Shown here one piece after another: positions 6,079 to 20,687 of a stretch of 64,000 nt of DNA. The notes under the pieces are model-generated. The model did no database searches. It was not told the DNA's origin and saw nothing but the letters and a program-made list of their open reading frames with translations. Position 1 is the first letter of the stretch. Each line of letters starts with the position of its first letter. This stretch comes from Gammaproteobacteria bacterium (GTDB taxonomy: Bacteria > Pseudomonadota > Gammaproteobacteria > Arenicellales > Poriferihabitantaceae). The position numbers were made by a program, and so were the translations under genes. The DNA is taken from contig VYFG01000145.1 in assembly GCA_009842505.1 (NCBI GenBank), forward strand, positions 7,151 to 71,150. Direction: 5' to 3'.

Positions 6079-6208
6079 GACTGCGCATGGTTTCTTTCAG
6101 GTTTCCGGCGTAACAGCCGCCGCGGCACATCCCGCACCCGCAGGCGAAACCCGGGGCGGTCATGGCCTGCACCGATCCAGTTGTGCTGTGCCCTGCATGG
6201 TGCTGCAC
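6071..6208 (-). CDS. Candidate small Cys/Gly-rich peptide ORF (possible YcaO substrate), absent from the ORF track because it is shorter than 60 aa
   Basis: Fills the 142-bp gap between the AlkB-fusion stop and the YcaO start. The GTG start at 6208 gives (M)QHHAGHSTTGSVQAMTAPGFACGCGMCRGGCYAGNLKETMRSHG; the ATG at 6163 gives a 30-aa version. Its stop overlaps the YcaO start (ATGGATGA). Third-position GC is about 73% by hand count, which is coding-like. Shine-Dalgarno sequences are weak. Confidence 0.3.
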   Translation of the reverse strand: MQHHAGHSTTGSVQAMTAPGFACGCGMCRGGCYAGNLKETMRSHG

Positions 6209-6220
6209 CTGGCGGTTCCG

Positions 6221-8620
6221 TCAGCTGCCCCGGGCGATGATGGCGGCCAGTCCGCTCTCGGTGGCGGAGGTGGCTTCCCGGACCGCTTCGGTCAACTCGT
6301 CGAAATCGGCCTGGTCGCAGGACCGGGCAAAGGTCATCCTGACCTTGTCTGGCATGGATTCGACCGGCGAGTCATTCTCCATGACCAGCTGCCGGATGCC
6401 GTACAGGTTCCGCCACATGCGGGCAGCCCCGGAAAGTTGCTCCGCAACTTCACGGGGAATCACTTCAAGCGCCTTGCCCGCCTGGAAAACGGAAGCAGCG
6501 TTGCTGGTAATCAGGCTTCCCGGCATCTCCGGCAGGTGGGTCAGCTGCAGCAGGCGTGCGGCGCGCTCGACATCACGGAGCCCCTGTTGCATGCTGGAGA
6601 TCAGCGATTGTTCGGTCCTGGTTTCATTGCCTGCCCCGTTGCGCAGCTCCCGGAGCAGCGCATCCCGTGTCGGGTCATCGGCCAGCAGGGAATATCGGGC
6701 ATCATCGAAACGTTGCCCGATACCGGGGTCTCCATGGGTAAAGATCCACCGTGCCCGGGTCAGGTCCAGCAGTTCGCTTGCCGAAGCGGTCCGGTGGTGT
6801 TCCACGAATTCGTCAAGCGCATAGACGCCGCGATCGCGGGCTTTCCCCGATGTCGGCTCGAACAGCAGGCTGGCCCGGGTCAGTATGCGAAGTGCCCCAT
6901 GAAACAGGCGGTACAGGGCCGCATGGCGATCAGCGGATCCGCCCTCGAAAACGAACATGATCTCGAGTGCGGCACGGGGCGCGACTTCCCGGCTGGCCAG
7001 ATCGCCGAAGATGACGGCGGCTATCCCGCCTTCGTCCGGGCGGGGATCACGGTCGGCAACATCTTCCACGACGGCCTGAAGAACTGCGTCGATCGAGGAT
7101 TCGGCGACATTGGCCAGTGCGATCCCGGCCTCGGTCGGCGTCAGGTTGCCGCGCAACGTATGCATGCCGATCTGGAACACCTTGTTGTTCGACCAGTCCC
7201 GAACCATCTCCGCGGCGTCGGCGGCATCCTTTACCGGTATTTCGGCGATCTGTTCCTTCATTTCCACGACACCGAACTCGTGGGTCCAGTAGACGCGCAC
7301 AAGTCCGCTGCGGGCAATCCTCTCAAATTCCGGGTCCGGTCCGAATCCTTCGGGCATCTCCAGATCGGTGAACTCCCTGTCCTTCAGGCTATCGAGCAGT
7401 TCCGGGTCCCTCTCGATTACCCTGACCAGGCGGGGAGCGGCGCCGTAAATCTCCATGATCGCGTCGAGTGCCTCCGGGCGTGCCTCGGAAACCGGGCTGT
7501 CGTAGGCGCTCCAGTCCTCGATTTCTGGGTAGAAGTGGGCCCGCCATTGATCCACCAGAGGGTCCATCGTCTCGAAGAAGCGCTTCGGGCGCAGGGCCAG
7601 GCCGAACATCGTGCCGTAGGTTCCCGGCAGCAGTGGAGATTCGTCTTCGCCGTGGTGCTGCAGCAGCGGGTAGCGCCTGCCCGCCGAGACATGGTGGTCG
7701 GGATGGCGTTGCATGTTGAAGAACATCCAGTTGCTGAACTTGTAGTCGGCGCCCCATGAATGCCGCAGGCTGACCCTTTCGAACCGGCCATTGGGCAGGC
7801 GTATCCGGCGCAGGCCGTAATGCTGGACGTAGTTGCTTATTTTCATCGAGAACACGATCCCGAGACACAGGAACATGAAGATCAGAACAGACCACCATCC
7901 CCCCAACGCATAGACGAACGCGTACCAGGCGGCGGTTTCAAGGCCGTACCGCCAAAACGGATTGCTGAAATGCCAGGTCGGCAACTGCCGATGCGCCATC
8001 CGTCCGCGTTCAACCTTCCAGGCCCCAAGGATGTTGCTTGCCAACTCGCGGGGGAAATACGTCCAGAAACTCTGTCCCTTGGGCGCGGAGCCCACGTCTT
8101 TCGGTGTGCCGACATAGGCATGATGGATATAGAAATGTTCCGTGGCGTAGTGCGGGTACGAAACGGAGGCAAGCAGGAATTCCCCGACGTACCGCTCCCA
8201 CGTCGTGCGCCGGTGAATCAGTTCGTGCCCGACGATGAACACTCCCTGACCTTCCACGCCCAGCACAATCGCCAGCAGCGCACCTTCCCAGGGAGCCAGG
8301 TGTCCGACCATGAAGATCTGCCATAGCGTGAACACGAATGCCGTCGGCCAGAGCAATGCCCAAAGCCATGCCGACAGGTTGTACCAGACCAGCCGGTGTT
8401 CCGGTGTCGCCCTGGGGTTCATGTTCCGCCCGTCCAGGCCGAAGGCAAGGTCCAGCGGGCCCGCGATCATGAAAAAGACGAACGGCCCGGCGATCCACCA
8501 GCCGCCGTACAGAGCGGCGGTGAAAATCAGGGGAAAGACCGCGAGGGGCAGGAAATGCGGAATGGCGTTCCGTAGTGATGGCTCAATCGCCCGATCTGTG
8601 GAAACTGCTACTGCAACCAT
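6221..8620 (-). CDS. Fusion protein: N-terminal AlkB-type membrane di-iron alkane 1-monooxygenase/desaturase domain plus C-terminal GlnE-like (adenylyltransferase-family) domain
   Basis: The N-terminal ~400 aa carry histidine boxes HELIHR, EHFYIHH, the NYVQHYGL signature and RHPDHH. The C-terminal ~400 aa resemble a GlnE repeat (LLFEPTSGKARDRG..., LDLTRARWIFTHGD, GLRDVERAARLLQLTH), but the nucleotidyltransferase G-S/DxD positions look degenerate (GDLASREV...LEIMFVF). SD GGAG lies 8 nt upstream of the ATG. Confidence 0.75.
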   Translation of the reverse strand: MVAVAVSTDRAIEPSLRNAIPHFLPLAVFPLIFTAALYGGWWIAGPFVFFMIAGPLDLAFGLDGRNMNPRATPEHRLVWYNLSAWLWALLWPTAFVFTLWQIFMVGHLAPWEGALLAIVLGVEGQGVFIVGHELIHRRTTWERYVGEFLLASVSYPHYATEHFYIHHAYVGTPKDVGSAPKGQSFWTYFPRELASNILGAWKVERGRMAHRQLPTWHFSNPFWRYGLETAAWYAFVYALGGWWSVLIFMFLCLGIVFSMKISNYVQHYGLRRIRLPNGRFERVSLRHSWGADYKFSNWMFFNMQRHPDHHVSAGRRYPLLQHHGEDESPLLPGTYGTMFGLALRPKRFFETMDPLVDQWRAHFYPEIEDWSAYDSPVSEARPEALDAIMEIYGAAPRLVRVIERDPELLDSLKDREFTDLEMPEGFGPDPEFERIARSGLVRVYWTHEFGVVEMKEQIAEIPVKDAADAAEMVRDWSNNKVFQIGMHTLRGNLTPTEAGIALANVAESSIDAVLQAVVEDVADRDPRPDEGGIAAVIFGDLASREVAPRAALEIMFVFEGGSADRHAALYRLFHGALRILTRASLLFEPTSGKARDRGVYALDEFVEHHRTASASELLDLTRARWIFTHGDPGIGQRFDDARYSLLADDPTRDALLRELRNGAGNETRTEQSLISSMQQGLRDVERAARLLQLTHLPEMPGSLITSNAASVFQAGKALEVIPREVAEQLSGAARMWRNLYGIRQLVMENDSPVESMPDKVRMTFARSCDQADFDELTEAVREATSATESGLAAIIARGS

Positions 8621-8761
8621 AATGGATCTCCGAAATACTCAACAGCGGCTTAAAACCCCTGTATCGGAAAGTTATTGTGTGCCCGGCAGCATTATTCCTT
8701 TCCCGAAACTGTCTGGTCAAGGGCCGCGTACCGAAACCCCGGAATTCTGGCCTTAACAAAT

Positions 8762-8791
8762 ATGACTGGTCATGGATACTGGTCATATGAC
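8762..8791. promoter_or_regulatory. Clustered ATGAC/GTCAT half-sites (likely antitoxin operator) overlapping the antitoxin start
   Basis: ATGAC 8762-8766, GTCAT 8769-8773, GTCAT 8782-8786 and ATGAC 8787-8791. ACTGGTCAT occurs twice, 13 bp apart. GTCATATGAC is a perfect 10-bp palindrome. Confidence 0.35.
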
Positions 8792-9026
8792 AACCATCAA
8801 TGCATCCGACTTCAAGGCCCGCTGCCTTGCCATCCTTGACCGCGTCCATGAGACGGGGGAACGGGTGGTCATTCTGAAGCGCGGGAAACCCGTTGCGGTG
8901 TTGGTTCGTCCAACCGGGGAAGACAAGGCGTTTCCCCAGGCCGAGCTGGCCGGGACGGTCGAGTTGGTCGGAGATGTTGTGGGGCCGGTGTTGCCGGAAG
9001 AATACTGGGACGTCCTGAAACCGTGA
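8787..9026 (+). CDS. Phd/YefM-family type II antitoxin
   Basis: MTTINASDFKARCLAILDRVHETGERVVILKRGKPVAVLV is a typical Phd/YefM N-terminus. It overlaps the downstream PIN toxin by 4 nt (GTGA). An alternative ATG lies at 8772. Confidence 0.8.
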   Translation: MTTINASDFKARCLAILDRVHETGERVVILKRGKPVAVLVRPTGEDKAFPQAELAGTVELVGDVVGPVLPEEYWDVLKP

Positions 9027-9421
9027 AGGCCCTGCTCGATACACACATTCTGCTCTGGCGGCATGAAGACCGGGGCCGGCTGTCCCGTGACCAGCAGGAA
9101 GTGATTGCAGCCGCCGATGCGGATTCGCCGTTGCTGATCTCCGATATCTCCCTGTGGGAAGTGGCCATGCTGCACAGCCTTGGCCGGATTCGCCTCACGA
9201 CTCCCCTGCGGGAGTGGCTGGGGAAGTTGGCGTCACCTCCACTGGTGCGGCGAAATGGAATGTCACCGGCGATCGCGGCCGAGTTGGCCTCGTTGCCCGA
9301 TTCCTTCCATCGTGACCCGGCAGACCGCATCCTGGTTGCCACGGCCCGGGTGCTCGGCGCGACGCTGCTGACCCGGGACCGCAGGATTACGGAAGCGCGA
9401 CTGGTGGACACCCTGGCCTGA
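9023..9421 (+). CDS. vapC: VapC-type PIN-domain toxin
   Basis: 132 aa. LLDTHILLW near the N-terminus (first acidic PIN residue) and DPADRILVATA near the C-terminus. GTG start is coupled to the antitoxin stop. Confidence 0.85.
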   Translation: MKALLDTHILLWRHEDRGRLSRDQQEVIAAADADSPLLISDISLWEVAMLHSLGRIRLTTPLREWLGKLASPPLVRRNGMSPAIAAELASLPDSFHRDPADRILVATARVLGATLLTRDRRITEARLVDTLA

Positions 9422-9477
9422 TTCCGGGGCAGGCGCTGTTGCAGGGGAATCCCGGCTGAACGGTTCCGGGGGTGGGG

Positions 9478-10752
9478 CTAGCAGCCAAGACCCCGGGACA
9501 TCTGGTCATAGCTGGTGAGGGGGACTGCGCACATCCGGTTCCAGTCCGCCTCGCCGATTTCCGGCTGGCGCATCAGTTCGAACATGCCGTCGAACTTGCT
9601 GAGTGCATCGCAGTCCACGGACTCGGGAGCCGCCGCCTTGCGGTGCCGTGGCCAGACGTGGTCACGGGCATGGCGCCAGAACCCGCTGTCGTATTTTGAG
9701 CCAAGGCAGTAGTGCCAGCCGACGAACAGGCCGTAACAGAGCATGTTGTTGACGAGGAACCGGTTGACAATCGGTGCGTCGCGTTCAATATGCTCGATTG
9801 GGCGGTTGAGACGCGTTTGGAGGACCATCCCGATCTGCAACTGGGCGGACACGATGGCCGTTGCCTCGAGGGGTTCCATGAAGGCCGCCGCGTTGCCGAT
9901 GCGGGCCACTGCGCCGTCGTACATATGCCGATGGACGAAATTGGGGAACTGGATGACGGCGCGCTGTTCGAACTCCGGTACGCCATCGGTTGCAAGGAAC
10001 GCATCGAAGTCCGACTCGACTTCGTCAAGGCCGGATACATCGCGGTTGAAGATGTACCCGTAGGATGTGTGTACTTGAAGCGGAATGACGAAAATCCAGC
10101 CGTGCGGGCGCGCAACCGCGCGGGTATAGGTGTGTTGCAGGACCGGTCCGTCCCGATCTTCCCCGAAGATTGCCGGGCAGCGGCGGATGACGGCCGTATT
10201 GGTGGGAATGAATGAAATGTCGATGTGCCGTTCGGGCTGGAGTTCCCTGGGAAATCCGCGGGCATCGAAGACCAGGTCGTAGCGTTCCGGCGCCAGGCCC
10301 TCGAATTCCACTTCCGCGCCGCCGTCCACTCTGGTGATCCCGAGCACTTTCGCGTCGATGTGGCGCGCGCGCGTGCTTTCGTACAGCAGGTCCCCCATCA
10401 GGTCGGCGGACAGGTGATAGGCGTAGGACTCCTTTACCGGCATGAAGTAGTGGGTGAAATCCTGGTCTCTCACCCCCCATCCCTCGAATGCGACCCCGTA
10501 CTTGCGGGTTCCTTTCAGGCGCTGCTGGACGGTATCGTGGGGCAGGTCCGTCAGGTGCTGCAACTGTTGGACCAGGCTCGGCCAGCTGCCTTCACCCACT
10601 CCGATTACCGGGATGCGCGAGTCATAGATGTGGTGCAGTTCGTAGTCCCGGCCGGAGAGAAGGCGAGTTATGCTGGCGGCCGCCAGGGACCCCGCGGTTC
10701 CGCGTCCCACAACCGCGATCTTCTGCAAGGATTTGCTGCCCGGATGGATCAC
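9478..10752 (-). CDS. Flavin-dependent (tryptophan-type) halogenase-like protein
   Basis: FAD fold VVGRGTAGS. IGVGEGSWPSL matches the GVGEATIP region. RKYGVAFEGW keeps the lysine that aligns with the catalytic Lys of PrnA/RebH-type enzymes. GWIFVIPL stands in place of WxWxIP (second Trp is Phe). FMEPLEATA stands in place of FxEPLESTG. GTG start. Confidence 0.7.
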   Translation of the reverse strand: MIHPGSKSLQKIAVVGRGTAGSLAAASITRLLSGRDYELHHIYDSRIPVIGVGEGSWPSLVQQLQHLTDLPHDTVQQRLKGTRKYGVAFEGWGVRDQDFTHYFMPVKESYAYHLSADLMGDLLYESTRARHIDAKVLGITRVDGGAEVEFEGLAPERYDLVFDARGFPRELQPERHIDISFIPTNTAVIRRCPAIFGEDRDGPVLQHTYTRAVARPHGWIFVIPLQVHTSYGYIFNRDVSGLDEVESDFDAFLATDGVPEFEQRAVIQFPNFVHRHMYDGAVARIGNAAAFMEPLEATAIVSAQLQIGMVLQTRLNRPIEHIERDAPIVNRFLVNNMLCYGLFVGWHYCLGSKYDSGFWRHARDHVWPRHRKAAAPESVDCDALSKFDGMFELMRQPEIGEADWNRMCAVPLTSYDQMSRGLGC

Positions 10753-11175: not shown

Positions 11176-11976
11176 TCAGCGCACGCGTCGCAGTGCCGGT
11201 TTGGTGAATTCGCTTACATCAAGCCCGGTGCGAAACTGGAAATCGGCCCATTGCAGCACCGTGCTCGCACCGGTCAGGTGGTTCACCATCGTTTGTTCTC
11301 CCGCCCGCCAGTACTGGTCCAGGTATTGCCGGTAGTTCTCGAACGTGAGCGTTTTCAGATGCGAGTCCTTTCGGTCGTAAAGCTCCATCTTCCAAGTCCG
11401 AAGCTCGCCGGTATCCTGCCAGACGATCTTGCGGCTGTATCCGGACTTCCTGTCCAGGGGTACCTGCTCAATCACCGTGCATGTGAGCGCCCCGCATGGC
11501 TCGTCGCGAAGATACCTGTAGGCATATTCTTCCACCTCCGAAGAGGTCATGTCCTCGTAGGAAAACTCGCTCCCCATGAATGACCCTGAACGTGACGAGG
11601 CGTTGATGCGCTTTACCCTTTTCAGGGCCGGCAGGTACAGCCACTGGTCGTCCTGTGTGTTGATGTGGGCGTGCGTCAGGAGGGCGGTTCCCTGCACGTC
11701 CCGTGGCTGGTCGAACACGAACAGGCTCCGGTCGCCATCTCCCTGCATCTCCAGCACCTTGAAGCGCATCTGGCGGACACTCTCCCGGCCCTGCCGGTCG
11801 CGCAGTAGCATCCGCATACCGGCGGTGTAATCCCCGAAGCCGTCGTTGCGGACGCTTGATTCACGCGCAATCCGAAGACCCTTGTCCTCCGGAGTTTCCT
11901 CTTCGGCAAGGGCATGTGTACCCGGCAGGCACAAGCATGACAGCGCCAGGGACAGGACGATGACCACGGAATTCAA
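11176..11976 (-). CDS. LolA-like outer membrane lipoprotein-sorting family protein (periplasmic partner typical of COG1033 RND exporters)
   Basis: Signal peptide NSVVIVLSLALSCLCLPGTHA, then LFVFDQPRDVQGTALL, WLYLPALKRVKRI and GSFMGSEFSYEDM, typical of the LolA-like family. The 482-aa track ORF runs antisense across the precursor gene, so I place the start at the TTG at 11976 (uncertain, within about 10 nt). Confidence 0.7.
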   Translation of the reverse strand: MNSVVIVLSLALSCLCLPGTHALAEEETPEDKGLRIARESSVRNDGFGDYTAGMRMLLRDRQGRESVRQMRFKVLEMQGDGDRSLFVFDQPRDVQGTALLTHAHINTQDDQWLYLPALKRVKRINASSRSGSFMGSEFSYEDMTSSEVEEYAYRYLRDEPCGALTCTVIEQVPLDRKSGYSRKIVWQDTGELRTWKMELYDRKDSHLKTLTFENYRQYLDQYWRAGEQTMVNHLTGASTVLQWADFQFRTGLDVSEFTKPALRRVR

Positions 11977-12266
11977 CGGGGCGCCCCGGTGGTGTGGGTA
12001 ACCCTGGATCCTGCTTTGGCAGACATACCTGCTTGCGTTGGTTTCGCGGTCAGGGAGCATCCGCACAGACTCCGTGGTGGACATGAAACATTGTACATTG
12101 GTACCCCGGAAAAGGTGAAGTTGCGGCCTTGCAGGAAATTCCAGACATGATACATTCCCTCTCGGATTCACGGCACTTTGCAGGTCATCCCCGGCACCGG
12201 AAGGGACACGCCACGGGAAATCGATTGCCGGCGCCGATGCACACAAGCCAAGCTTTTTCAGTGTTT

Positions 12267-12411: not shown

Positions 12412-12663
12412 ATGAGAAGTGGTGATGAAATGCTCAAGCAGATTGTTGAGAAGTCCGCCCTCGACACGGATTTCAGACAACAGTTGCGAGAAGATCCGAA
12501 GACTACGATCAGCAACGAACTGGGAATCACGATTCCCGATTCGATGAACATCATAATCCATGAGAGCGACATGCAGACGGTGCATCTCGCCCTGCCACCG
12601 GATCCGAACATTACCGAGGAGCAACTCGAGGCCATCTCAGCTGGTCTTTGCTGCTGCTGGTAA
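12412..12663 (+). CDS. NHLP (nitrile hydratase leader peptide) family RiPP precursor with a 5-residue core LCCCW
   Basis: 83 aa. The leader LKQIVEKSALDTDFRQQLREDPKTTISNELGITIPDSMNIIIHESDMQTVHLALPPDPNITEEQLEAISAG fits the NHLP pattern (...DxxFrxxLxxDPkxxl...G(i/v)x(l/i)P...hLvlPP...eeLEa(v/i)aGG). Only L-C-C-C-W (12646-12660) follows the A-G motif. It has a good SD and its own promoter and terminator. Confidence 0.85.
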   Translation: MRSGDEMLKQIVEKSALDTDFRQQLREDPKTTISNELGITIPDSMNIIIHESDMQTVHLALPPDPNITEEQLEAISAGLCCCW

Positions 12664-12788: not shown

Positions 12789-13907
12789 TTAATTGGTGAC
12801 GGCCCCGGATAGCACCATAAAGACGTAGGCCTTGGCTTTTCCAAGCCGGTTTCCGGTGATCACCAGCTTGATGTGGTGAATGCCGCGCAACAGCACAAAA
12901 CGTCCGGACTTCGCAAACAGCATCGTCGGTTTCGAGACCCAGTCCGCAAGCGCCGTCAGCTTCTCCGGAACCACAAGGTCCTCATGGCCCAGGGCATCCA
13001 GGAACGGATCCCAGTCGGTCAGGCCGTCGAGCCAGTAGCGGGAATCCTTTGTGTATCTCTGCTTGACAATGAGGGTAAGGCCGAGCGTCGGGCCGACGCC
13101 CTCTTCCTGCACGTCAATATTCAACCCGGTCCGGACGATATTCACCCGTTCGCGGAAGCGTGCAATCACGGAATCGACCACCGAGATATCCCCCGGCCAA
13201 CCCGTGTTTTCAAGATAGCCGCATGTTTCCCGCGGCGTCTTGAATCCCATGACCGCCAGGCGGATGGCCCGTGAACGGGACGGGAAAACTCCAAACGAAT
13301 CCATGCGCGTATCCCCCGGCTGCGCCAGGTAAGCCTGTTCAACGTGCTTGCGCTGGTCATCACTCATCTCCCAGCCCAGGCAGGAAACGAGCGCGTCAGC
13401 CACCATGCCGACCTCATCCGCCTGGCCGCCGGCGCCGACAATCGGGCGCTCGCCGGGCCTCAGGAACATTCCCGGAAGCGAACATGCACTGTCCTGCGCC
13501 GAACCGATGTCATATTCAAGCATCAGCTTGCGGCCGACGACTTCACGCAGTGGAGAGTGCTCGGATTCCATCTGTCTGAACAGCTGCGAGACCGCCCTGG
13601 CGATCTCGTCCGTCCTGTCGGTCCGGGCACGTTCATGGAAAAAATCCGCCGTTCGGGTCCCGCTCGCCAGGGATACTCCGAAATCCGCTTGCGGGCTTCG
13701 CAGATGAAGCGGCAGTTCAAAGCCGAAGGGAAGGGCACCCATCGTGATGGGAAGCTTCCCGGCGCATACGAGGATGCGCTCCCATTCGGGGTCTCCGATC
13801 AGAATCGGCGAGACCCGGTTCCGGAACTGCCCGAGCAGTTCACCCATGCTGCCGCCTTCTTCGGCAAGACGGTCCTGGGTAAGTATGATTGCCTCGTCAA
13901 TATCCAT
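12789..13907 (-). CDS. Uncharacterised 372-aa protein of the NHLP locus (five beta-hairpin repeats; possible ABBA/PT-barrel-like fold)
   Basis: Coding-like codon usage. Strong SD GAGG 7 nt upstream of the ATG at 13907 (MDIDEAI...); the track's start at 13976 lacks an SD. I recognise no family motif. It has five segments of paired amphipathic strands separated by helical stretches. Confidence 0.7.
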   Translation of the reverse strand: MDIDEAIILTQDRLAEEGGSMGELLGQFRNRVSPILIGDPEWERILVCAGKLPITMGALPFGFELPLHLRSPQADFGVSLASGTRTADFFHERARTDRTDEIARAVSQLFRQMESEHSPLREVVGRKLMLEYDIGSAQDSACSLPGMFLRPGERPIVGAGGQADEVGMVADALVSCLGWEMSDDQRKHVEQAYLAQPGDTRMDSFGVFPSRSRAIRLAVMGFKTPRETCGYLENTGWPGDISVVDSVIARFRERVNIVRTGLNIDVQEEGVGPTLGLTLIVKQRYTKDSRYWLDGLTDWDPFLDALGHEDLVVPEKLTALADWVSKPTMLFAKSGRFVLLRGIHHIKLVITGNRLGKAKAYVFMVLSGAVTN

Positions 13908-14142
13908 ATTTATGCCTCGGGACTGCAGGCGCGGAACCAGGGCTGGCTGCAGGGAACGGGAGCCCGGACAGCCCATGCCGATGGGCGCCGGACCTTCCGG
14001 GAACGGCGCATGGCCGGGATGATCACCCGCGCCCCAGGCATGCCGGCGCAGTGCCGGGTCCGGTCCTGCGCCCGGGGCTCCATGCCCCCGGCATCGGTGG
14101 TCGTGCGGTCATTTCCCGTTTTTGCTTGCGTGTCCAAGTCCT

Positions 14143-15444
14143 TCAGGCTTCCAGGGCCTCGACGAGACGCTCCAGGGCCTCGATGCAAAATGCGGTGGTC
14201 ACGGATTCAGAGCCGTGCCCGATCTGTCCGAACGCGCCCCATCTCAGCGATTGGTCGCCAAACGCGAGCAGTTCCGGCCAGCTGCCGTCTTCACGCTGGG
14301 AACCGATGATCCTTTCCACCTGACGTTTCACGTCGATACTTTCAAGGCGATCAATATTATAGAGTGCCGAGACCGCCTGTGCGGTCTGGAGGAGGTTGCC
14401 GAATTCCCCTTTCCCGCCGCCCAGGTCAAGGATTCGATCCGCAAGTATCGGCCGTAGACTGTCGAGAGCGGGTTCGGCGCACATCATGGCACGGGTTGTT
14501 GCATAGTAGATCGTGACCGTGTCGGGATACCATTTGGACGAGTCCTTGAGCCGGTCTTCAATGATCAGGGCCTCCAGCCATCGTTGGGCGTCCCTGGTTT
14601 CGGGGTGGTCGCCGAGGTAGGCGATGACATTCGCATTGACCACAGGATCGGCTTCGATACGGAAGCTGGACACGACATCGGGTTCGTCTTCCTCCAACAT
14701 CCAGGTCTTGAAACAGCCGTTGTCGTCGCGGTTCGCCAGTATTCGCGGGACATTCCTTCCCAGAAAGACCCAGGGGTGGGACCCGATGACAAGCGAACAG
14801 ACGGTGGTGCTGTCTAGATCCTGGGGAAGGTGGCGGTAGTAGCGCCACAATCCGGGATACTCGATGGTGCTGACGAGATACTTCCTGGTGGCGTCGCACA
14901 GGGCCCTGGCCCGGGCCTCATCGCTGCTTTCCAGGGCAAGCACGCAAAGGGCCGAAATGAACGGAGGCTTTTCGAAATGTCGCGGAATGTCCGGATCGGC
15001 GATATTGAACCTGATGCAGTGCCAGGCCCCGGATTCGTCGACCACGGATTCCAGGAAGGCCAGGCCACGGAGGATGCTTTCCCTGCCCTTTTTGGCAAGT
15101 GCTTTCGGGGTGGCGGCGTGCTTGCGGGCGCGCACCCGTTCGGGAGCGGGCGGGCGCATGGGCGGTGCCGGGTCGTGGAGTGTCCTGCGAAGAAACTCCA
15201 GTGACGTTGCGCCGGCTTTCGCCTCCTTCCGCTCGGCCTCGCTGTATTTGCTGTGCGGCGGGATCACCAAGTGCGTGGCGGAATAGGTTTCTTCGTGCAC
15301 GTGTATCTCATGGTCTTCGTCCAGGGTAACCCCGAAATCCCTTGCGATCGTTTCCTTTGGATTCATGACAAGGCGTGCGCGAAAGTCGCTGTCCTCGGCG
15401 GCTCTTGAAGCAATGCGATCGGTTGCGTCAGCAGGTTTCTTCAT
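14143..15444 (-). CDS. NHLP-type leader (aa 1-78, ending KEAKAG) fused to a ~355-aa prenyltransferase/squalene-cyclase-repeat (alpha/alpha-toroid) domain
   Basis: Residues 1-78 align without gaps to the 78-aa leader of the 12412 precursor, with 24/78 identities by hand count (DxDFR, L, PK, TI, G.T, HE, HL..PP, terminal AG). The downstream domain has QW-type repeats: ERIIGSQREDGSW (canonical), FLESVVDESGAW, ILANRDDNGCF and ILDLGGGKGEF. Confidence 0.8.
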   Translation of the reverse strand: MKKPADATDRIASRAAEDSDFRARLVMNPKETIARDFGVTLDEDHEIHVHEETYSATHLVIPPHSKYSEAERKEAKAGATSLEFLRRTLHDPAPPMRPPAPERVRARKHAATPKALAKKGRESILRGLAFLESVVDESGAWHCIRFNIADPDIPRHFEKPPFISALCVLALESSDEARARALCDATRKYLVSTIEYPGLWRYYRHLPQDLDSTTVCSLVIGSHPWVFLGRNVPRILANRDDNGCFKTWMLEEDEPDVVSSFRIEADPVVNANVIAYLGDHPETRDAQRWLEALIIEDRLKDSSKWYPDTVTIYYATTRAMMCAEPALDSLRPILADRILDLGGGKGEFGNLLQTAQAVSALYNIDRLESIDVKRQVERIIGSQREDGSWPELLAFGDQSLRWGAFGQIGHGSESVTTAFCIEALERLVEALEA

Positions 15445-15537: not shown

Positions 15538-18483
15538 TCAGGCGACCTGTCTCTTGACCAGTTCTTTGAATACCCCGTCGACCTCCATGAGTTCGTCGAA
15601 GGAGCCGCTCTGTACGACTCTTCCGGCCTGCAGCACGTAGATGCGATCGGCCTGTTCCAGCGTGGACAGACGGTGGGCGATGACGATCCGGGTGGCAGTC
15701 AGGGTCGTGAGGTTCCGCATTACCTTGGCCTGGTTTTCGTTGTCCAGCCAGTTGGTTGCCTCGTCGAACAGCATGATTCGGGGGTTGCCGATCACCGATC
15801 GGGCGATTGTGACGCGCTGGCTCTCGCCGCCCGACAGGACAGAACCGCTGGCGCCGACCATGGTCATCATGCCCATGGGCATGCCCCTGATCTCGTCCTC
15901 GACTTCGGCGACCCGGGTGGCGGTCCATACTTCCTCGTTCTCCACTCCATCGTGGTGACTGACCAGGTTGTCCCAGAGGTCCTGGGGATGGAGCCCCACC
16001 GATTGTGGCACTGTGCCGATTTTCCGACGCACCTGTCTCAGATTCAGGTGCCTGAGGTCACGCCCGTCGTAATACACCGCACCGGCGGTTGGCCGGTCAA
16101 TTCCAAGTGCAAGCCGGAACAGGGTGCTCTTGCCGGCACCTGATTCGCCGGCAATTGCGATGAATTCACCGGGGCGGGCGCGGATCGTGACCCCGTCGAG
16201 AATCAGCGGTCCGTCGGGATCGTAGCGGAAGGAAATGTGGTCGAACAGGATGTCGCCGCCCAGATATTCAACCGGTTCTCCTTCGATCTCGGCCTCGGGA
16301 ACCGCGGTGAGCAGCGGGCGCATCTGGTCGAACGCCGGCAGCATGGCGGCAACGGTGCCCAAGGACTCGCCGAGCCGGGCGATGGCGGTCTGGAATACGA
16401 TGAAGACCGTGTAGACTACAAGAAAATCGCCGACCGGGACGTTCCGGTCGCCCACCGACATCACCGCAAAAAGCAGTACTCCGGCGGCGAGAAAGGGGAG
16501 CGCGGCGCCAAATGCCCGGGAATGCCCCTCGAGTGCGCCCAGTTCGAGTTCCGCGCGTTTCTGCTCGCGGTAGCCCCGGGCCCAGATGGCGAAAGCCGAC
16601 CCTTCCGCATTTTCCACGCGCAGTTTGGTGATCCCGCCCACGATCTGGAACAGCTGGCCGGCTACGCGGCGTGTCGCACTGATCATCCGCCCATACGGTG
16701 AGATCTGGCTCCATCCGATGACCGCGGTGATCAGCAGAGAAGCCAGGCTGAAGGCGAGGGCGATGCTCCCGAGGGTGGCATCGTAGAAGAAGATGATACC
16801 AAAGGACGGGAGCAGGAAAATGATCGACAGGAAGCTGTCGGCGACGACCCCCTGCAGACCGTCGCGAAGATTCTGGAAGGTCATTCCCGACATGGCCAGG
16901 TCGCCTGCCGGTTGGCGGTGCAGGATGCTCGGAGGAAGACGCATGAGGCGGTCCCAGAAGGCGGCCTCGACCCGTGACGCCGCGCGCCCCTCGAGCCGCA
17001 TCATTGCAGTGCCCTGAAGCAGATGCAGCAGGGCGCCGAGCACGCCGAGACCCGCCAGCGCCACGGCCATGGCATAGAGCGCCTCGACGTTTCCGCCCGC
17101 AGTGGCTTCATGCGCAACAAAGCCGAGCGCAAGTGCCGGCAGGAGCTTGATCAGGCCGCCCGGAAGCCCGGCAATCACAAGCCGTAGCAGATCCGCGGCC
17201 GATCCATGCAGGGCGATTTTCAGCAGGTCTGCCGGTTTCACGTTCCCCGACGGTAATGGCCGGTAGAACATCCAGGCTTCCTCCCCAAGCGCGCTGGCGC
17301 GATCCGCTGAGATCCGCGCGCTGCGCTTGGTGGCCGGGTCGTATTCCCGATAGCGCCCGAACATTCCCGGCAGCAACGCCACCGGCCGCCCGTCTTCCGG
17401 GCGGAATACCAGCATCGCGTTGCTGTCCCCACGCCACCAGGTTCCCTCGGCCTTGAAACGCACGCGTCGGGCGCGTACGCCCGAGGCATCGAGAACGTCC
17501 ACGAGGCCGATCGGAATATCGGCAGGTCCCGTGCGCGCCGGGATCCGGAAATCGATTCCTTCATGGCGGCCGATGATCCGCAGAGCATCTTCCAGGGCCG
17601 TGTCCTCGACACTGGCTTCCCGGTCAATGGGCTGATCATAGATATTGAAAAGCCGTTGCCTGGCAACCCTCTCGGCCGTGCGGCGGCTGGTTGTCCGCGC
17701 GCGCTCGAGATTCACGTCATCGACCACGGCCAGGCGGCGGTTTAGGCGTTCCAGGGTAAAGGCGACCGCGTGGAAGGTGGCGAGCGCCGGCAGCAGCGTG
17801 CCTTGCTGCGCCAATGTTTCGGTAGACTGGCCCGTCAGTGTCGTCTCTTCGAACAGGGTGATCCAGTTGGTCCGTGTCAGCGGGAGCATGGTTTCGCCTG
17901 CACCGCCGGCCTCGGCAAGTTCCGCCTGGTCGACGATATCCATGAACAGGACTGCGCCGTGCGACGGTTTGCTGACCCATACCACGCGGTGCCGTGTGGA
18001 CAGCGTGCAGGAGGGAGAAAGGGTTTGCGCCAGACCGGGTTCGGCCAGGGCTGTCGGACGCGGAAGGGGGCTCGCAAAGCGCGACAACGTGCCGGTGATG
18101 GCGTTCAGCCAAGTGTCGGCCTGCTCCGCCAGTTCCGCCGGATCGGCCTGGGACAGCAGGGACGCCGGCAGCCGTTTCAGCATTGTGCCCGGCATTCCCT
18201 TGGCCATCAGGCTGAGCGTAGTGTCCTGGCCATCGTCCCGTACGTCCGGGGCAACGCCAGGAAGCAACCAGCCCGAATCGCGGCGCAGCAGATGCTGTGG
18301 TGCCGCCTGTTCCACCCCGTCCTTGAATTCGATCAGGAACAGGTTGACGGCACCCTGATCGATGAACCAGACGCTGTCGGGATCGTCGAGCCTGACCGGC
18401 AGATTGCCGGCACAGGGCACGGCTGTGCCGGAGCGTGCGGCGAGCTCTGCGATGGATATGTATTGCGGCCCGGTGTCCTTCAT
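15538..18483 (-). CDS. NHLM-type bacteriocin ABC transporter, ATP-binding/permease protein with a long N-terminal cNMP-binding-like extension
   Basis: 981 aa. Walker A GESGAGKST, signature LSGGESQRV, Walker B IMLFDEATNWLD, six-TM ABC exporter core. The N-terminal ~330 aa have no peptidase Cys motif. Its start overlaps the upstream PCAT stop by 1 nt. Confidence 0.85.
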   Translation of the reverse strand: MKDTGPQYISIAELAARSGTAVPCAGNLPVRLDDPDSVWFIDQGAVNLFLIEFKDGVEQAAPQHLLRRDSGWLLPGVAPDVRDDGQDTTLSLMAKGMPGTMLKRLPASLLSQADPAELAEQADTWLNAITGTLSRFASPLPRPTALAEPGLAQTLSPSCTLSTRHRVVWVSKPSHGAVLFMDIVDQAELAEAGGAGETMLPLTRTNWITLFEETTLTGQSTETLAQQGTLLPALATFHAVAFTLERLNRRLAVVDDVNLERARTTSRRTAERVARQRLFNIYDQPIDREASVEDTALEDALRIIGRHEGIDFRIPARTGPADIPIGLVDVLDASGVRARRVRFKAEGTWWRGDSNAMLVFRPEDGRPVALLPGMFGRYREYDPATKRSARISADRASALGEEAWMFYRPLPSGNVKPADLLKIALHGSAADLLRLVIAGLPGGLIKLLPALALGFVAHEATAGGNVEALYAMAVALAGLGVLGALLHLLQGTAMMRLEGRAASRVEAAFWDRLMRLPPSILHRQPAGDLAMSGMTFQNLRDGLQGVVADSFLSIIFLLPSFGIIFFYDATLGSIALAFSLASLLITAVIGWSQISPYGRMISATRRVAGQLFQIVGGITKLRVENAEGSAFAIWARGYREQKRAELELGALEGHSRAFGAALPFLAAGVLLFAVMSVGDRNVPVGDFLVVYTVFIVFQTAIARLGESLGTVAAMLPAFDQMRPLLTAVPEAEIEGEPVEYLGGDILFDHISFRYDPDGPLILDGVTIRARPGEFIAIAGESGAGKSTLFRLALGIDRPTAGAVYYDGRDLRHLNLRQVRRKIGTVPQSVGLHPQDLWDNLVSHHDGVENEEVWTATRVAEVEDEIRGMPMGMMTMVGASGSVLSGGESQRVTIARSVIGNPRIMLFDEATNWLDNENQAKVMRNLTTLTATRIVIAHRLSTLEQADRIYVLQAGRVVQSGSFDELMEVDGVFKELVKRQVA

Positions 18484-20687
18484 CAGCCCGACTTGACCAG
18501 CTTGTAGTACGTGCCTTCCCGGTCCGCAATCAGCTCGGCATGCGTGCCGCGCTGCACCGTGACGCCCTTATGGAGTACGATGATTTCATCGCAATCCCGC
18601 ACGGTGCTCAGCCGGTGAGCCACGATCAGGCAGGTGACGCCGCGCCGCCGAAGGGCATCATCAACGAATTCCTCGGTTGCGGCATCGAGGGCGCTGGTCG
18701 CCTCGTCCAGGATGAGCACCGTCGGATGGCCCACCAGCGCGCGGGCGATTTCCAGCCGTTGCCGCTGGCCGCCGCTGAAATTCGCCCCGCCCTCTTCGAC
18801 CAGGGTCGCATATCCTTGCGGCCGGATCAGGATTTCGTCATGGATCTGGGCATCCCGCGTCGCGGTGAAAATGGCTTCATCCGGAATGGCCGGGTTCCAC
18901 AGGGTGATATTGTCGCGTACTGACGCGGAAAAGAGCACGACCTCCTGATCCACCATGGAAATGGACTGCCGCAGCACTTCCTCGGGAATCTCATCCCGCA
19001 GATGGCCATCAAACAGGATTTCCCCCGACCAGGGTTGATAGACACCCGATACCAGGCGCGCCAGAGTCGACTTGCCGGAGCCGCTGGAACCGACCACGGC
19101 AACCCGCTGTCCCGGCCTGATCACGAGGCTGAAGTCCTTGATCAGGGGTGGGCGGCTCTTGTTGAAACCGAAGGTGACATTGCGTAGTTCGAGCTGGCCT
19201 GCCAGCTGGAGCCGGCCGTTGAACGTGGGAATTGAGTCCGATTCCGGACTCCGGCGATTGAAAACCGGGTCTTCGGCGGCCTTGGAGATGTCATCGACCC
19301 GCTGCAGGTCGGTTTCGAGCGCCTGGCGCTTGTCGGCGAATTCCAGAAAGTGCCCGATGGGCGTCAGGAACAGTTCTGCCAGGATATAGAAGCCCACCAG
19401 CGTTCCCAGGGTCATTTGCCCGGTCATGACCATGCCGCCCCCGATGCCGAGGATCGCCGCGCTGCGAAGTACGGCAATCAGGCCCGGGAGCGCGGTGTTG
19501 ACGGAGCCCAGTTCGGAATAGGCCTGGCGAGCCTGCAGTTCGCGCGCCTGCTGGCCACTCCAGCGCGAAAAAAACCGGTCATCCGCTCCCGTCATGCGCA
19601 GGTTGTCCGCATGGTTCAGCATCTGCATGCCGAGACCGATCAGCAATCCCTGTTCGCGCCTCATCGTCTGGCTTCGGACCGCCCGGTGGGCGTTAAGAAA
19701 GTGGGCCAGGATGCCGTGCAAAAGCGCCAGCAGCAGCACAATCAGCGTCAGCAGGATATCGTACGCAAGCATCGCGATGAGCAACACCACACTCATGGCC
19801 ATGTCGATCATGAGCACCAGGAACTGGTCCGTCAGATTCTTCGCGATTCTGTCAATGGACGAGACCCGGTCGGTCAGGTCGCCGGCCAGCCTGTGCTCGA
19901 AAAACTCCACCGGCAACCGCAACAGGCGCGACAGGCCACGGTTGTGGCCGGTCACCGAAATCCGGATTGCTAGACGCTTCAGGAACCGGTGCTTGAGCAG
20001 GGACAGGATGTATACCAGAACACCGCCGCACAGCAGGGCTGCCACCAGTCCGCCCCAGGGCCCATGGTTTTGCAGGACATCGTCCACGAAAACACTGAGG
20101 GATGCGGGGACGAGGAGTGCCAGCAACGTCAACATGAGCCCGCAGGCGATCACTCCGGCAAGCACATTCCATGATCCGCCGAGCAGGGTGCCCAGTTGAC
20201 TGAACAGGCCGGGTTGCTCGCCGCCGGGCTTGAAATCGGCGCTGAGCTTGAACCGTAGTGCAATGCCGCTGTAGCCCTTGTTGAACTCTTCAACGGAAAG
20301 CCTGCGTCGTCCCGTGGACGGGTCATTGAGATGGTAGTTACGACCGTCGAATCCCTCAAGGACGACGAAATGGCTGAATTGCCAGAACAGTATCAGGGGC
20401 AGTTCCAGCTTTTGCAGTTGCTCGGCACGCACGCTGAGTCCATTGCATTCGAGGCCATAGTGTCTCGAGGCGCGCAGGATGCTTGCGGCACTGCTACCGT
20501 CCCGGCTCACCTCGCATTTTTCGCGCAATTCGGTAAGCGGCACCCAGCGCCCGAAGTAGGCCAGTATGATGCCCAGGCAGGCTGCGCCACATTCCGACGC
20601 GTGCATCTGTAACAGGACCGGGGTGACTACCCTCCGTTTCCGGGAGTCTGTGGCGGCCTTGCCAGCAGCCCCTTTTGAGGCGACCAT
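18483..20687 (-). CDS. Peptidase C39-containing ABC transporter (PCAT) of an NHLP/NHLM system
   Basis: 734 aa. The N-terminal C39 domain has an intact catalytic set (QMHASECGAACLG Cys, SHFVVLEG His, LNDP Asp). Walker A GSSGSGKST, signature FSGGQRQRL, Walker B LILDEATSALD. Confidence 0.9.
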   Translation of the reverse strand: MVASKGAAGKAATDSRKRRVVTPVLLQMHASECGAACLGIILAYFGRWVPLTELREKCEVSRDGSSAASILRASRHYGLECNGLSVRAEQLQKLELPLILFWQFSHFVVLEGFDGRNYHLNDPSTGRRRLSVEEFNKGYSGIALRFKLSADFKPGGEQPGLFSQLGTLLGGSWNVLAGVIACGLMLTLLALLVPASLSVFVDDVLQNHGPWGGLVAALLCGGVLVYILSLLKHRFLKRLAIRISVTGHNRGLSRLLRLPVEFFEHRLAGDLTDRVSSIDRIAKNLTDQFLVLMIDMAMSVVLLIAMLAYDILLTLIVLLLALLHGILAHFLNAHRAVRSQTMRREQGLLIGLGMQMLNHADNLRMTGADDRFFSRWSGQQARELQARQAYSELGSVNTALPGLIAVLRSAAILGIGGGMVMTGQMTLGTLVGFYILAELFLTPIGHFLEFADKRQALETDLQRVDDISKAAEDPVFNRRSPESDSIPTFNGRLQLAGQLELRNVTFGFNKSRPPLIKDFSLVIRPGQRVAVVGSSGSGKSTLARLVSGVYQPWSGEILFDGHLRDEIPEEVLRQSISMVDQEVVLFSASVRDNITLWNPAIPDEAIFTATRDAQIHDEILIRPQGYATLVEEGGANFSGGQRQRLEIARALVGHPTVLILDEATSALDAATEEFVDDALRRRGVTCLIVAHRLSTVRDCDEIIVLHKGVTVQRGTHAELIADREGTYYKLVKSG

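Follow-up and report, generated by a model that had tools for sequence, protein, structure and literature searches.

Can a peptide with a core of only five residues be a genuine natural product precursor, and what would the genes around it make of it? This question is raised by a small open reading frame in the window, by which we mean the whole 64,000-nucleotide stretch of contig VYFG01000145.1 (assembly GCA_009842505.1) that was analysed. The frame is srpE, and it lies within an intact full-length srp cluster of a gammaproteobacterium that is probably a sponge symbiont. The features of the locus on which the following analysis is based are collected in Table 1.

Table 1. Features of the srp locus in the window, with the evidence for each assignment.
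Feature	Position	Strand	Basis
Fused cyclodehydratase (wHTH/RRE + E1-like + YcaO), presumed SrpC orthologue, Cys80-82 to thiazolines	3778-6078	-	TIGR03604, TIGR03882, Pfam
799-aa fusion of AlkB-type membrane di-iron hydroxylase and GlnE-like C-terminal half	6221-8620	-	PDB, Pfam
SrpI orthologue, Trp-halogenase-family flavoenzyme, C-terminal Trp brominase by orthology	9478-10752	-	SrpI identity, Pfam
LolA-like periplasmic lipid/lipoprotein carrier (start 12084 or 12060)	11176-12084	-	Pfam LolA_like E 1e-58
srpE, 83-aa NHLP/proteusin precursor	12412-12663	+	Translation, TIGR03793, SrpE identity, locus conservation
372-aa conserved protein, predicted ABBA (PT-barrel) fold, candidate prenyltransferase	12789-13907	-	AF2, Foldseek
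433-aa fusion of NHLP-like N-terminal part (~1-70) and class II terpene-cyclase homologue (~100-433)	14143-15444	-	TIGR03793, family profile
Second NHLP-system ABC permease/ATPase subunit	15538-18483	-	TIGR03797 662.5 bits
NHLP-type peptidase/permease/ATPase ABC exporter (C39)	18483-20687	-	TIGR03796, Pfam, motif
Short HlyD-like secretion adaptor, 187 aa	20689-21252	-	Weak TIGR03794 match, E 1e-5
MMPL/RND-type transporter, sterol-sensing-like domain	21597-23936	-	Pfam MMPL E 7.5e-34, Sterol-sensing E 2e-12

The precursor and its five-residue core

Translation of 12412-12663(+) gives MRSGDEMLKQIVEKSALDTDFRQQLREDPKTTISNELGITIPDSMNIIIHESDMQTVHLALPPDPNITEEQLEAISAGLCCCW* (83 aa). Residues 1-78 (12412-12645) form the leader, which ends in EAISAG, and the remaining codons, CTT TGC TGC TGC TGG TAA, encode the core LCCCW (12646-12660) and the stop (12661-12663). 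The sequence AAAGGGG, about 8 nt upstream of the start, is a plausible ribosome-binding site, and a scan for promoters and terminators around srpE gave nothing above shuffle expectation. Against the NCBIfam model TIGR03793 (NHLP leader peptide family RiPP precursor) the peptide scores 64.5 bits, above the cutoff of 50.9, with model positions 4-77 of 77 aligned to residues 6-78. Because the model ends at the Gly of SAG, five residues are left over. The leader contains an I(X)4L motif, ITEEQL, and meets the core at an AG boundary of the double-glycine type. The locus also encodes an ABC exporter with a C39 peptidase domain, and cleavage at this boundary is predicted. The NHLP leader, the AG boundary, the five-residue core and the terminal codons had all been described in a first-pass annotation of this DNA, and all of them are borne out by the sequence and by the TIGR03793 alignment.

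Described proteusin and TOMM cores mostly run to tens of residues, a premise from which the first-pass annotation also started, and the frame could accordingly be a truncated or frameshifted NHLP precursor, i.e. the pseudogene of a proteusin with a longer core. A protein search with the window SrpE returned 695 homologues. Of the best 120, all but one have a length of exactly 83 aa, and the ending SAGLCCCW is likewise found in 119; the single homologue of 90 aa has the same ending, and the lone deviant reads SVGHCCFW. SrpE relatives are encoded at 308 loci in species-representative genomes, and at all of the 80 loci retrieved, which come from many phyla, the frame stops right after Trp83 (LCCCW-stop, 80/80). 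The codons of the core vary synonymously among these loci (CTT, CTC, CTG or TTG for Leu, TGC or TGT for Cys), and three stop codons are in use (TAA in 30, TAG in 47 and TGA in 3). Moreover, srpE transcription in sponges is very high, and sponge metatranscriptomes show srpE as the most highly transcribed gene of such clusters (bioRxiv 10.1101/2023.06.09.544420). The conserved stop, the variety of stop codons and the synonymous changes exclude a truncation or frameshift, to which we assign a negligible probability. The srpE frame with its five-residue LCCCW core is thus confirmed as real, far above chance. Across phyla, leader and core of the SrpE homologues are conserved equally strongly; for the leader of a RiPP this is unusual. 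At position -12, the first residue of the I/L(X)4L motif that spans positions -12 to -7, Ile is the majority form (116 of 119 homologues).

Relation to published SrpE and to the Mpr system

The srp cluster was reportedly introduced as a sponge-derived RiPP proteusin cluster, with SrpE as its precursor, by Nguyen et al. (J Am Chem Soc 2021, 143:10221); our assignment of the window to srp draws on follow-up papers from these authors and from others. The window peptide and published SrpE are 81% identical and equal in length (83 aa, 252 bp), and they have an identical core, given as LCCCW in the literature (PMC10286304; bioRxiv 10.1101/2023.06.09.544420). The published motif reads LTEEQL and that of the window ITEEQL, a variant already noted by Waterworth et al. 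(bioRxiv 10.1101/2023.06.09.544420), and otherwise the window copy has no distinguishing trait. The likeness extends to the cluster, with which the window shares the 83-aa/252-bp precursor, the LCCCW core, the AG boundary, an SrpI-like halogenase, a YcaO protein and NHLP-type exporters. The closest srpE loci (95-98% protein identity) belong to MAGs designated Gammaproteobacteria bacterium or Candidatus Poriferihabitaceae, order Arenicellales, and the MAG names of relatives (Candidatus Poriferihabitaceae, Boseongicola sp. SB0662_bin_57) suggest that they came from sponges. In high-microbial-abundance sponges the srp cluster is reported to be found everywhere and to be strongly transcribed (bioRxiv 10.1101/2023.06.09.544420).

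The first-pass annotation had regarded the LCCCW core as unusual. It is not new, however: SrpE with an LCCCW core has been in print since 2021; the precursor is already known, and the window holds another copy of it. The LCCCW finding itself adds nothing new, as both key modifications have also been reconstituted already, and SrpE has since been employed as a biocatalysis substrate. What is useful is that the window can now be recognised as an srp cluster, intact and full-length, of a gammaproteobacterium that probably lives in a sponge. No mature srp product from nature is reported in the srp follow-up literature, and a 2025 sponge-peptide review makes no mention of srp.

The best match of the window SrpE in the PDB is an NMR structure from the Mpr system (PDB-code: 8TB1, E 2e-8). 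In the MprE/MprC/MprD proteusin azol(in)e system of Methylovulum psychrotolerans (ACS Chem Biol 2022) the NHLP leader is of the same fold class as that of SrpE, azolines are installed by a YcaO protein, and the precursors have an L(X)4L motif and a boundary of the GG type. Unlike srp, however, it has longer cores, carried by ten precursors, and MprD as an azoline dehydrogenase of its own, and MprC refuses the SrpE leader. No match to a dehydrogenase family was found among the scanned srp cluster proteins.

Conserved genes around srpE

Neighbouring genes were counted over the 55 srpE loci with full flanks. The srp gene set surrounds srpE in 53 of them, spanning Gamma-, Alpha- and Deltaproteobacteria, Gemmatimonadota, Chloroflexota, Acidobacteriota and Binatia, with protein identities of 60-85% and a shuffled gene order. 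Present in these 55 loci are the genes for the second ABC subunit (49), the NHLP-fused cyclase homologue (48), the fused cyclodehydratase (43), the ABBA-fold protein (43), the AlkB/GlnE-like protein (38), the HlyD-like adaptor, conserved beside the ABC genes (30), and the LolA-like protein (22). The MMPL protein travels with the cluster and is found at 78-85% identity in 24 of the 55, in other phyla. A Cys/Gly-rich 45-aa frame at 6071-6208(-) was considered as a second TOMM-like precursor and rejected: it is present only in two near-identical loci, where it shows 80-87% amino acid identity vs. 97-98% for the flanking genes, and in other loci the gap at this position is too short. Likewise discarded as extra genes were frames in the 858-bp gap 8621-9477, which have no Pfam match and are conserved in the closest relatives only.

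The cyclodehydratase scores above the curated cutoffs of TIGR03604 (264.9 bits, cutoff 219.25) and TIGR03882 (149.9 bits), and Pfam identifies a YcaO domain (E 1e-96) and an N-terminal wHTH domain (PF21084). Judging by family scores and synteny, we presume that it is the orthologue of SrpC, a YcaO protein that cyclodehydrates the three Cys of SrpE to three thiazolines (PMC10858898, PMC10286304, PMC12615548). With a cyclodehydratase and a Cys3 core, the window contains what characterizes a TOMM or linear azol(in)e cluster. TOMM clusters often also encode a SagB-type FMN dehydrogenase that makes azoles. The scanned conserved cluster proteins gave no match to a nitroreductase/SagB-type family, in agreement with the published finding of thiazolines (PMC10858898).

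The window halogenase shares 79% identity with published SrpI (sequence from the supplement of PMC10286304) over the full length of 424 aa; the GTRKYG stretch with the catalytic Lys84 is identical in the two, and Pfam Trp_halogenase is matched with E 3e-42. SrpI is absent from the PDB, where the best matches are halogenases of free Trp (E 2e-26). SrpI has been characterized as a flavin halogenase of the C-terminal Trp, an obligate brominase that depends on the leader (PMC10858898, PMC10286304, PMC12615548). Its activity reportedly requires the two Leu of the L(X)4L motif, and we assume that binding of the SrpI type also takes place with Ile at position -12, as in ITEEQL. The 2021 JACS paper reportedly gives C6 as the position of bromination. 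The published masses of 569.15 and 647.06 agree with the values calculated for heterocyclised and brominated LCCCW. Because a halogenase lies within 10 kb of srpE in only 25 of the 55 loci, bromination may not be universal. The first-pass annotation had placed a fused YcaO protein and a Trp halogenase near the precursor, which the matches to TIGR03604, TIGR03882 and Pfam corroborate. [quoted passage not shown]

The 372-aa protein, whose start was set at 13907 because its homologues are 372 aa long, has no match in Pfam or NCBIfam, and its family profile finds nothing among PDB sequences, even at E up to 10. Its AF2 model (pLDDT 85.6, pTM 0.85) consists of exactly ten strands, arranged as five hairpins flanked by helices and hence as five alpha-alpha-beta-beta units. 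In a Foldseek comparison with the PDB the best 50 matches are all ABBA prenyltransferases (E ~1e-5, probability 1.00), with target-normalised TM-scores of 0.44-0.58. The predicted fold is therefore like the barrel of CloQ, NphB, EpzP, AmbP1/3, DMATS, IptA, CymD and PriB, but the protein differs from ABBA prenyltransferases in having only ~10% sequence identity to its structural matches and no Pfam family. Because there is no detectable membership at the sequence level, we call it a predicted ABBA-fold protein and candidate prenyltransferase, not a member of that family.

For the 433-aa fusion the AF2 model was poor (pLDDT 54.6; Foldseek TM ~0.3) and was therefore replaced by a distant-homologue search and a comparison of profiles with the PDB. 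Residues 6-66 match TIGR03793 with 44.4 bits. The family profile of the C-terminal domain finds drimenol synthase (PDB-code: 9MHS, E 4e-30), squalene-hopene cyclase (E 1e-25), AstC and MstE, and 13 of the 41 members of this family match SQHop_cyclase_C. The domain is a class II terpene-cyclase homologue and a putative cyclase. Over ~290 positions it aligns with the class II domain of drimenol synthase, the catalytic D-L-D-T-T of which coincides with D209-L-D-S-T-T. Within the family the consensus reads DLDDTA, and neither of the flanking Asp varies; in comparison to the canonical DxDD of class II cyclases, the third Asp is a Ser in the window protein, which also carries the QW motif Q383xxDGSW. 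We know of no characterised class II cyclase with an NHLP fusion at its N-terminus.

The first-pass annotation had noted two putative proteins with a prenyltransferase fold in the locus and a CaaX-like peptide ending, and had named S- or Trp-prenylation as a candidate chemistry. The fold assignment stands, with good confidence, for the predicted ABBA barrel, on the AF2 and Foldseek results, and falls for the 433-aa fusion, whose C-terminal domain is a class II cyclase homologue and not of the CaaX type. S-prenylation finds no support, since heterocyclisation of the Cys, as published for this pathway, uses up their thiols (PMC10858898). CaaX-type chemistry, which calls for an alpha/beta heterodimeric protein prenyltransferase with a Zn site and a free Cys thiol, does not fit the proteins either: the toroid protein is nearer to class II cyclases (E 4e-30 to 1e-25) than to the beta subunit of GGTase-II (E ~0.2, one repeat only); the protein prenyltransferase alpha-subunit family had no match among the scanned proteins.

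Residues 39-358 of the 799-aa fusion match the AlkB structure 8F6T with E 8e-50, the protein matches the GlnE structure 3K7D with E 4e-4, and Pfam reports FA_desaturase and GlnE. The exporter scores 855.6 bits against TIGR03796 (cutoff 853.3) and contains a Peptidase_C39 domain (E 4e-34) and an ECGAAC catalytic-Cys motif. It is presumed to cleave the leader after Ala77-Gly78 and then to export the product.

Proposed pathway and nature of the product

Taken as a whole, the srp pathway is very probably the best explanation of the window locus. It would begin with the ribosomal synthesis of the 83-aa peptide, in which the 78-residue leader would provide a folded recognition domain and a disordered tail with the I/L(X)4L motif. 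With ATP, the SrpC orthologue would then turn Cys80, Cys81 and Cys82 into a contiguous row of three thiazolines, and the SrpI orthologue would dock on I/L(X)4L and brominate the indole of Trp83 regiospecifically; both of these steps have been shown experimentally for the orthologues in the literature. Next, the C39 domain would cleave after Ala77-Gly78, and the pentapeptide-derived product would be exported, a step that we infer from family membership and from in-vitro cleavage by the related protease LahT150, which frees the intact modified pentapeptide from SrpE (PMC10286304 supplement). Finally, judging by fold and homology, the remaining conserved genes (those for the ABBA-fold protein, the NHLP-fused cyclase homologue, the AlkB-like hydroxylase and the MMPL/LolA-like pair) probably tailor and traffic the product further, and they plausibly do so by adding an isoprenoid group and modifying it.

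Could the product be something other than an exported, modified pentapeptide? SrpE might act as a scaffold peptide, with its C-terminal residues built into a small molecule and then excised, as modelled on the pearlin pathways, PQQ and mycofactocin; the result would be a bromo-indole/thiazoline alkaloid or a terpenoid-indole. Pearlin pathways yield 3-thiaglutamate and ammosamide. The tiny core ending in Trp, the leader conserved as strongly as the core across phyla, and the small-molecule-type enzymes of the cluster (ABBA-fold protein, class II cyclase homologue, AlkB-like hydroxylase) would all suit such a scheme. Nevertheless, we consider it very improbable: the C39 peptidase/ABC exporter pair, which the cluster always carries, is of a kind whose known job is double-glycine cleavage and export of the whole core, LahT150 releases the modified pentapeptide intact in vitro, and an aminoacyl-tRNA-dependent ligase, a LanB-like enzyme and a C-terminal excision protease are unmatched in the scanned proteins.

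Also unlikely, if somewhat less so, is a secreted metallophore, with the three contiguous thiazolines and the free termini as chelators and with metal acquisition or detoxification as the purpose of the cluster, rather than antibiosis or membrane function; the first-pass annotation had raised metal chelation as an idea. Contiguous thiazolines are indeed metal ligands in siderophores such as yersiniabactin and pyochelin, and a cluster that is ubiquitous and highly expressed across symbiont phyla would fit a 'public good'. On the other hand, the proteins scanned within ~10 kb gave no match to a TonB-dependent receptor, a periplasmic binding protein or a reductase, the transporters that go with the cluster (MMPL, LolA-like) belong to exporter and lipid-carrier types, and bromination together with a putative prenyltransferase suggests that the product would be hydrophobic and not soluble.

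Within the srp pathway, the conserved accessory genes suggest that the end product is modified by an isoprenoid. As a tentative extension, which we regard as possible and by no means as probable, the mature product may be a peptide-isoprenoid hybrid built by the genes of the last step. Here the ABBA-fold protein would prenylate the modified core, most plausibly at the Trp indole, the NHLP-fused cyclase homologue would protonate and cyclise the prenyl chain, the AlkB-like enzyme would hydroxylate it, and the MMPL/LolA-like pair would carry the lipopeptide across the envelope. To our knowledge there is no precedent for a class II terpene cyclase that acts in a RiPP pathway, nor for one with a leader-like NHLP domain as its fusion partner. 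The Pal system of Paenibacillus alvei (PalX/PalQ, PMC10853753) and the Mpp system of Moorena producens (MppE/MppC/MppI, PMC11791876, PMC12715784) likewise have long structured leaders, NHLP or Nif11-like, and their cores of 7-8 residues contain Trp. PalQ prenylates a C-terminal Trp (PMC10853753), and the mpp cluster combines an SrpI-like brominase with a Trp prenyltransferase and a terpene synthase (PMC11791876, PMC12715784); both are precedents for the proposed isoprenoid tailoring of the srp product. However, the fold of PalQ is that of an isoprenoid synthase and not ABBA, the mpp product is a lanthipeptide, and neither system has a tri-thiazoline or an NHLP-fused class II cyclase. If true, a hybrid product would explain why searches for the mass of the unadorned peptide missed it, although the cluster ranks among the most widespread and most transcribed of sponge symbionts. 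The remaining interest of the locus lies in the genes next to srpE, which provide a concrete hypothesis and, with it, prenylated brominated masses as a search target.

A five-residue core identical to that of SrpE

Translation of the precursor ORF confirms what the first-pass annotation had read there, namely an NHLP leader followed by a core of only five residues, LCCCW. The product scores 64.5 bits against TIGR03793 (NCBIfam, NHLP leader peptide family RiPP precursor; curated cutoff 50.9), and because the last position of this model falls on Gly-78, five residues remain as core. Among solved structures, the MprE7 proteusin leader determined by NMR (PDB-code: 8TB1, E 2e-8) matches best, followed by nitrile hydratase alpha subunits.

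The names of the homologue records lead to sponge-symbiont MAGs (Candidatus Poriferihabitaceae, Boseongicola sp. SB0662_bin_57, Gemmatimonadota, Binatia, Chloroflexota and Acidobacteriota), and therefore the srp cluster was recognised as a candidate identity. The srp cluster takes its name from sponge-derived RiPP proteusins and was reported by Nguyen et al. (J Am Chem Soc 2021, 143:10221). The window peptide is 81% identical to the published precursor SrpE, with an identical core, and the window halogenase is 79% identical over its full length to the Trp brominase SrpI, with which it shares an identical GTRKYG stretch around the catalytic Lys-84. Later papers give LCCCW as the SrpE core, among them PMC10286304, where both the leader of SrpE and the sequence of SrpI appear in the supplement. 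Given these identities, the window precursor is, as judged from sequence, SrpE and thus already known. Waterworth et al. described “a single 252 bp gene”, transcribed out of proportion in sponge symbionts of many phyla, with the core LCCCW and the consensus ITEEQL replacing LTEEQL (bioRxiv 10.1101/2023.06.09.544420); the window gene shares both the length of 252 bp and ITEEQL. The first-pass interpretation was largely right on the chemistry, but wrong in treating the precursor as new, since the SrpE/srp system had already been published.

Features of the srp cluster in the window, with the number of loci holding a counterpart (tblastn; 55 loci with full 10-kb flanks; counts are lower bounds owing to the 10-kb limit)
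Feature	Coordinates	Strand	Loci (of 55)	Remarks
YcaO	3778-6078	-	43	presumed SrpC counterpart
45-aa ORF	6071-6208	-		GTG start
AlkB-like fusion	6221-8620	-	38	799 aa
Intergenic stretch	8621-9477			858 bp
Halogenase	9478-10752	-	25	SrpI counterpart
LolA-like	11176-12084	-	22	carrier
srpE precursor ORF	12412-12663	+		83 residues, C-terminus ...NITEEQLEAISAG-LCCCW, then TAA
372-aa protein	12789-13907	-	43	
NHLP-fusion protein	14143-15444	-	48	433 aa
ABC2	15538-18483	-	49	permease/ATPase
ABC1	18483-20687	-	46	exporter with C39 peptidase
HlyD-like	20689-21252	-	30	
MMPL	21597-23936	-	24	MMPL/RND transporter

Conservation of the ending and spread of the cluster

A protein search with the window precursor returned 695 homologues, and length and ending were read on 120 of them. 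All but one are 83 aa long, the sole 90-aa homologue also ending in SAGLCCCW, as do 119 of the 120. The only deviant ending, SVGHCCFW, belongs to a 93% identical homologue (P0006) and keeps two Cys and the C-terminal Trp.

Could the short core result from truncation or decay of a longer-core precursor? A locus scan with one genome per species gave 308 loci with an srpE relative. In each of the 80 retrieved, LCCCW is directly followed by a stop codon (TAA 30, TAG 47, TGA 3), and the 78 distinct nucleotide sequences among them vary synonymously in the Leu and Cys codons, which refutes a pseudogene or truncation. Neither a longer orthologous core nor loss of the pentapeptide, both of which the first-pass annotation had named as counting against its reading, was found at any of them. 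Leader identity between phyla is also unusually high, at 82-100%. The G+C content of srpE is 51% vs. 59-64% in the surrounding cluster and genome, and this marked difference from host DNA fits a near-invariant srpE sequence across phyla.

When every window gene was compared with the 80 loci by tblastn, srpE was seen to be surrounded by about 11 genes that form a mobile set. The cluster proteins are 60-85% identical between loci, the order of genes varies between phyla, and the housekeeping flanks of the window (TrkH, TolC, PCMT) are matched at L001 and L002 alone, two near-identical loci. This shuffled order, the range of identities and the unshared flanks agree with horizontal spread of the srp cassette, as proposed earlier in the literature. 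One MAG contig (CBDBZU010000004.1) carries three srpE copies: at one (L006) cluster genes adjoin srpE, the exporter peptidase and halogenase not being found within the 10-kb flanks, and the other two (L051 and L068) are orphan copies, their 10-kb surroundings holding no cluster gene.

Modification and release of the core

Thiazoline formation by the YcaO protein and Trp halogenation, both put forward in the first-pass annotation, have been demonstrated for the orthologues. SrpC converts the three Cys to thiazolines, and SrpI is an obligate brominase that accepts Trp only at the C-terminus and requires the L(X)4L motif that spans leader positions -12 to -7, the folded N-terminal nucleus being dispensable (PMC10858898, PMC10286304, PMC12615548). 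The window YcaO protein is a fused wHTH/RRE, E1-like and YcaO cyclodehydratase (TIGR03604 and TIGR03882 both above cutoff). No SagB-type dehydrogenase family matched among the conserved cluster proteins scanned, which agrees with thiazolines rather than thiazoles. Both exporter subunits (15538-20687) match ABC models specific to NHLP systems, and the C39 peptidase domain of ABC1 bears an ECGAAC active-site motif; the leader would be removed after Ala-77-Gly-78. In published work the modified pentapeptide was freed by the protease LahT150 (PMC10286304). Calculated masses of LCCCW less three waters and four hydrogens (569.146; 647.056 with bromine) agree with the published table values for a chimera treated with MprC/MprD of the Methylovulum psychrotolerans azol(in)e system. 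For the native tri-thiazoline we calculate an [M+H]+ of 573.177, and 651.088/653.086 when brominated.

Instead, SrpE might be a scaffold peptide on which a small molecule is built, as in the pearlin and PQQ pathways. This is possible but unlikely, because the C39/ABC exporter is ever-present and no excision or ligase enzyme matched among the scanned proteins. A metallophore role of the product is improbable, as uptake-system families were likewise unmatched among these proteins.

Conserved genes possibly pointing to isoprenoids

The first-pass annotation had seen two putative prenyltransferase-fold proteins in the locus, and this view finds support for one of them. The ORF at 12789-13976 encodes, judging from 120 homologues listed, a true product of 372 aa starting at 13907, which matched no Pfam or NCBIfam family. 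Its AlphaFold2 model (30-sequence alignment; pLDDT 85.6, pTM 0.85) has ten strands in five hairpins with helix pairs between, and the best 50 Foldseek PDB matches are all ABBA aromatic prenyltransferases (E about 1e-5, TM 0.44-0.58), including EpzP, CloQ, NphB, AmbP1/3, IptA, 5- and 6-DMATS, PriB, CymD and TleC. An ABBA barrel is thus confidently predicted on good fold evidence, without sequence-level membership, as the family profile matched nothing in the PDB. No homologue listed is less than 76% identical, and the family therefore appears restricted to srp clusters.

The N-terminal domain of the 433-aa protein is NHLP-like (TIGR03793 44.4 bits; also matching nitrile hydratase alpha subunits and 8TB1) and lacks the L(X)4L motif. 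Because the AF2 model of the protein was poor, a distant-homologue search was used, in which the C-terminal 334 residues gave 816 matches among 1.8 billion representative proteins, mostly stand-alone, of about 320 aa and without an NHLP domain. An alignment of 41 of these shows the consensus LPPDLDDTA and an invariant Q..DG.W, and 13 of the 41 match Pfam SQHop_cyclase_C. The family profile covers the whole class II domain of drimenol synthase (PDB-code: 9MHS, E 4e-30) and also matches squalene-hopene cyclase (E 1e-25), AstC (5e-21), other prenyl cyclases and MstE. The cyclase part of the window protein has a QW motif and, where the general acid is expected, D209-L-D-S-T-T, which aligns with D-L-D-T-T of drimenol synthase. 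By homology the protein is a class II terpene cyclase relative; a CaaX-type identity was rejected on these profile matches.

In the AlkB-like fusion, a homologue of the membrane di-iron alkane hydroxylase AlkB (8F6T, E 8e-50) is followed by a C-terminal half that resembles GlnE and is related to adenylyltransferases. The MMPL/RND transporter, with a sterol-sensing-like domain (78-85% identity across phyla), and the LolA-like carrier (67-80%) travel with the cluster and hint at a lipidic cargo. Collectively, the conserved extra genes, to which one 2025 paper gives no function, suggest that one branch of the srp pathway handles lipids or isoprenoids. Trp prenylation is plausible by analogy, since PalQ attaches a prenyl group to the C-terminal Trp of its NHLP substrate (PMC10853753) and, in the Moorena mpp cluster, an SrpI-like brominase occurs together with a terpene synthase and an enzyme that geranylates Trp (PMC11791876, PMC12715784). 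No paper among those searched links srp to prenylation or terpene cyclisation, although the 2021 founding paper may annotate these genes. The mature product could be a brominated tri-thiazoline peptide that is also prenylated and possibly cyclised, but this is a tentative and rather doubtful proposal.

The stretch between the AlkB-like and halogenase genes holds no convincing ORF or Pfam match; its nucleotide conservation is 93%, confined to L001 and L002. The 45-aa ORF between the AlkB-like and YcaO genes overlaps the YcaO start and contains a Cys/Gly-rich stretch, GFACGCGMCRGGCYAG. Present only in the same two loci, at 80-87% amino acid identity vs. 97-98% for the flanking genes, it is probably non-coding.
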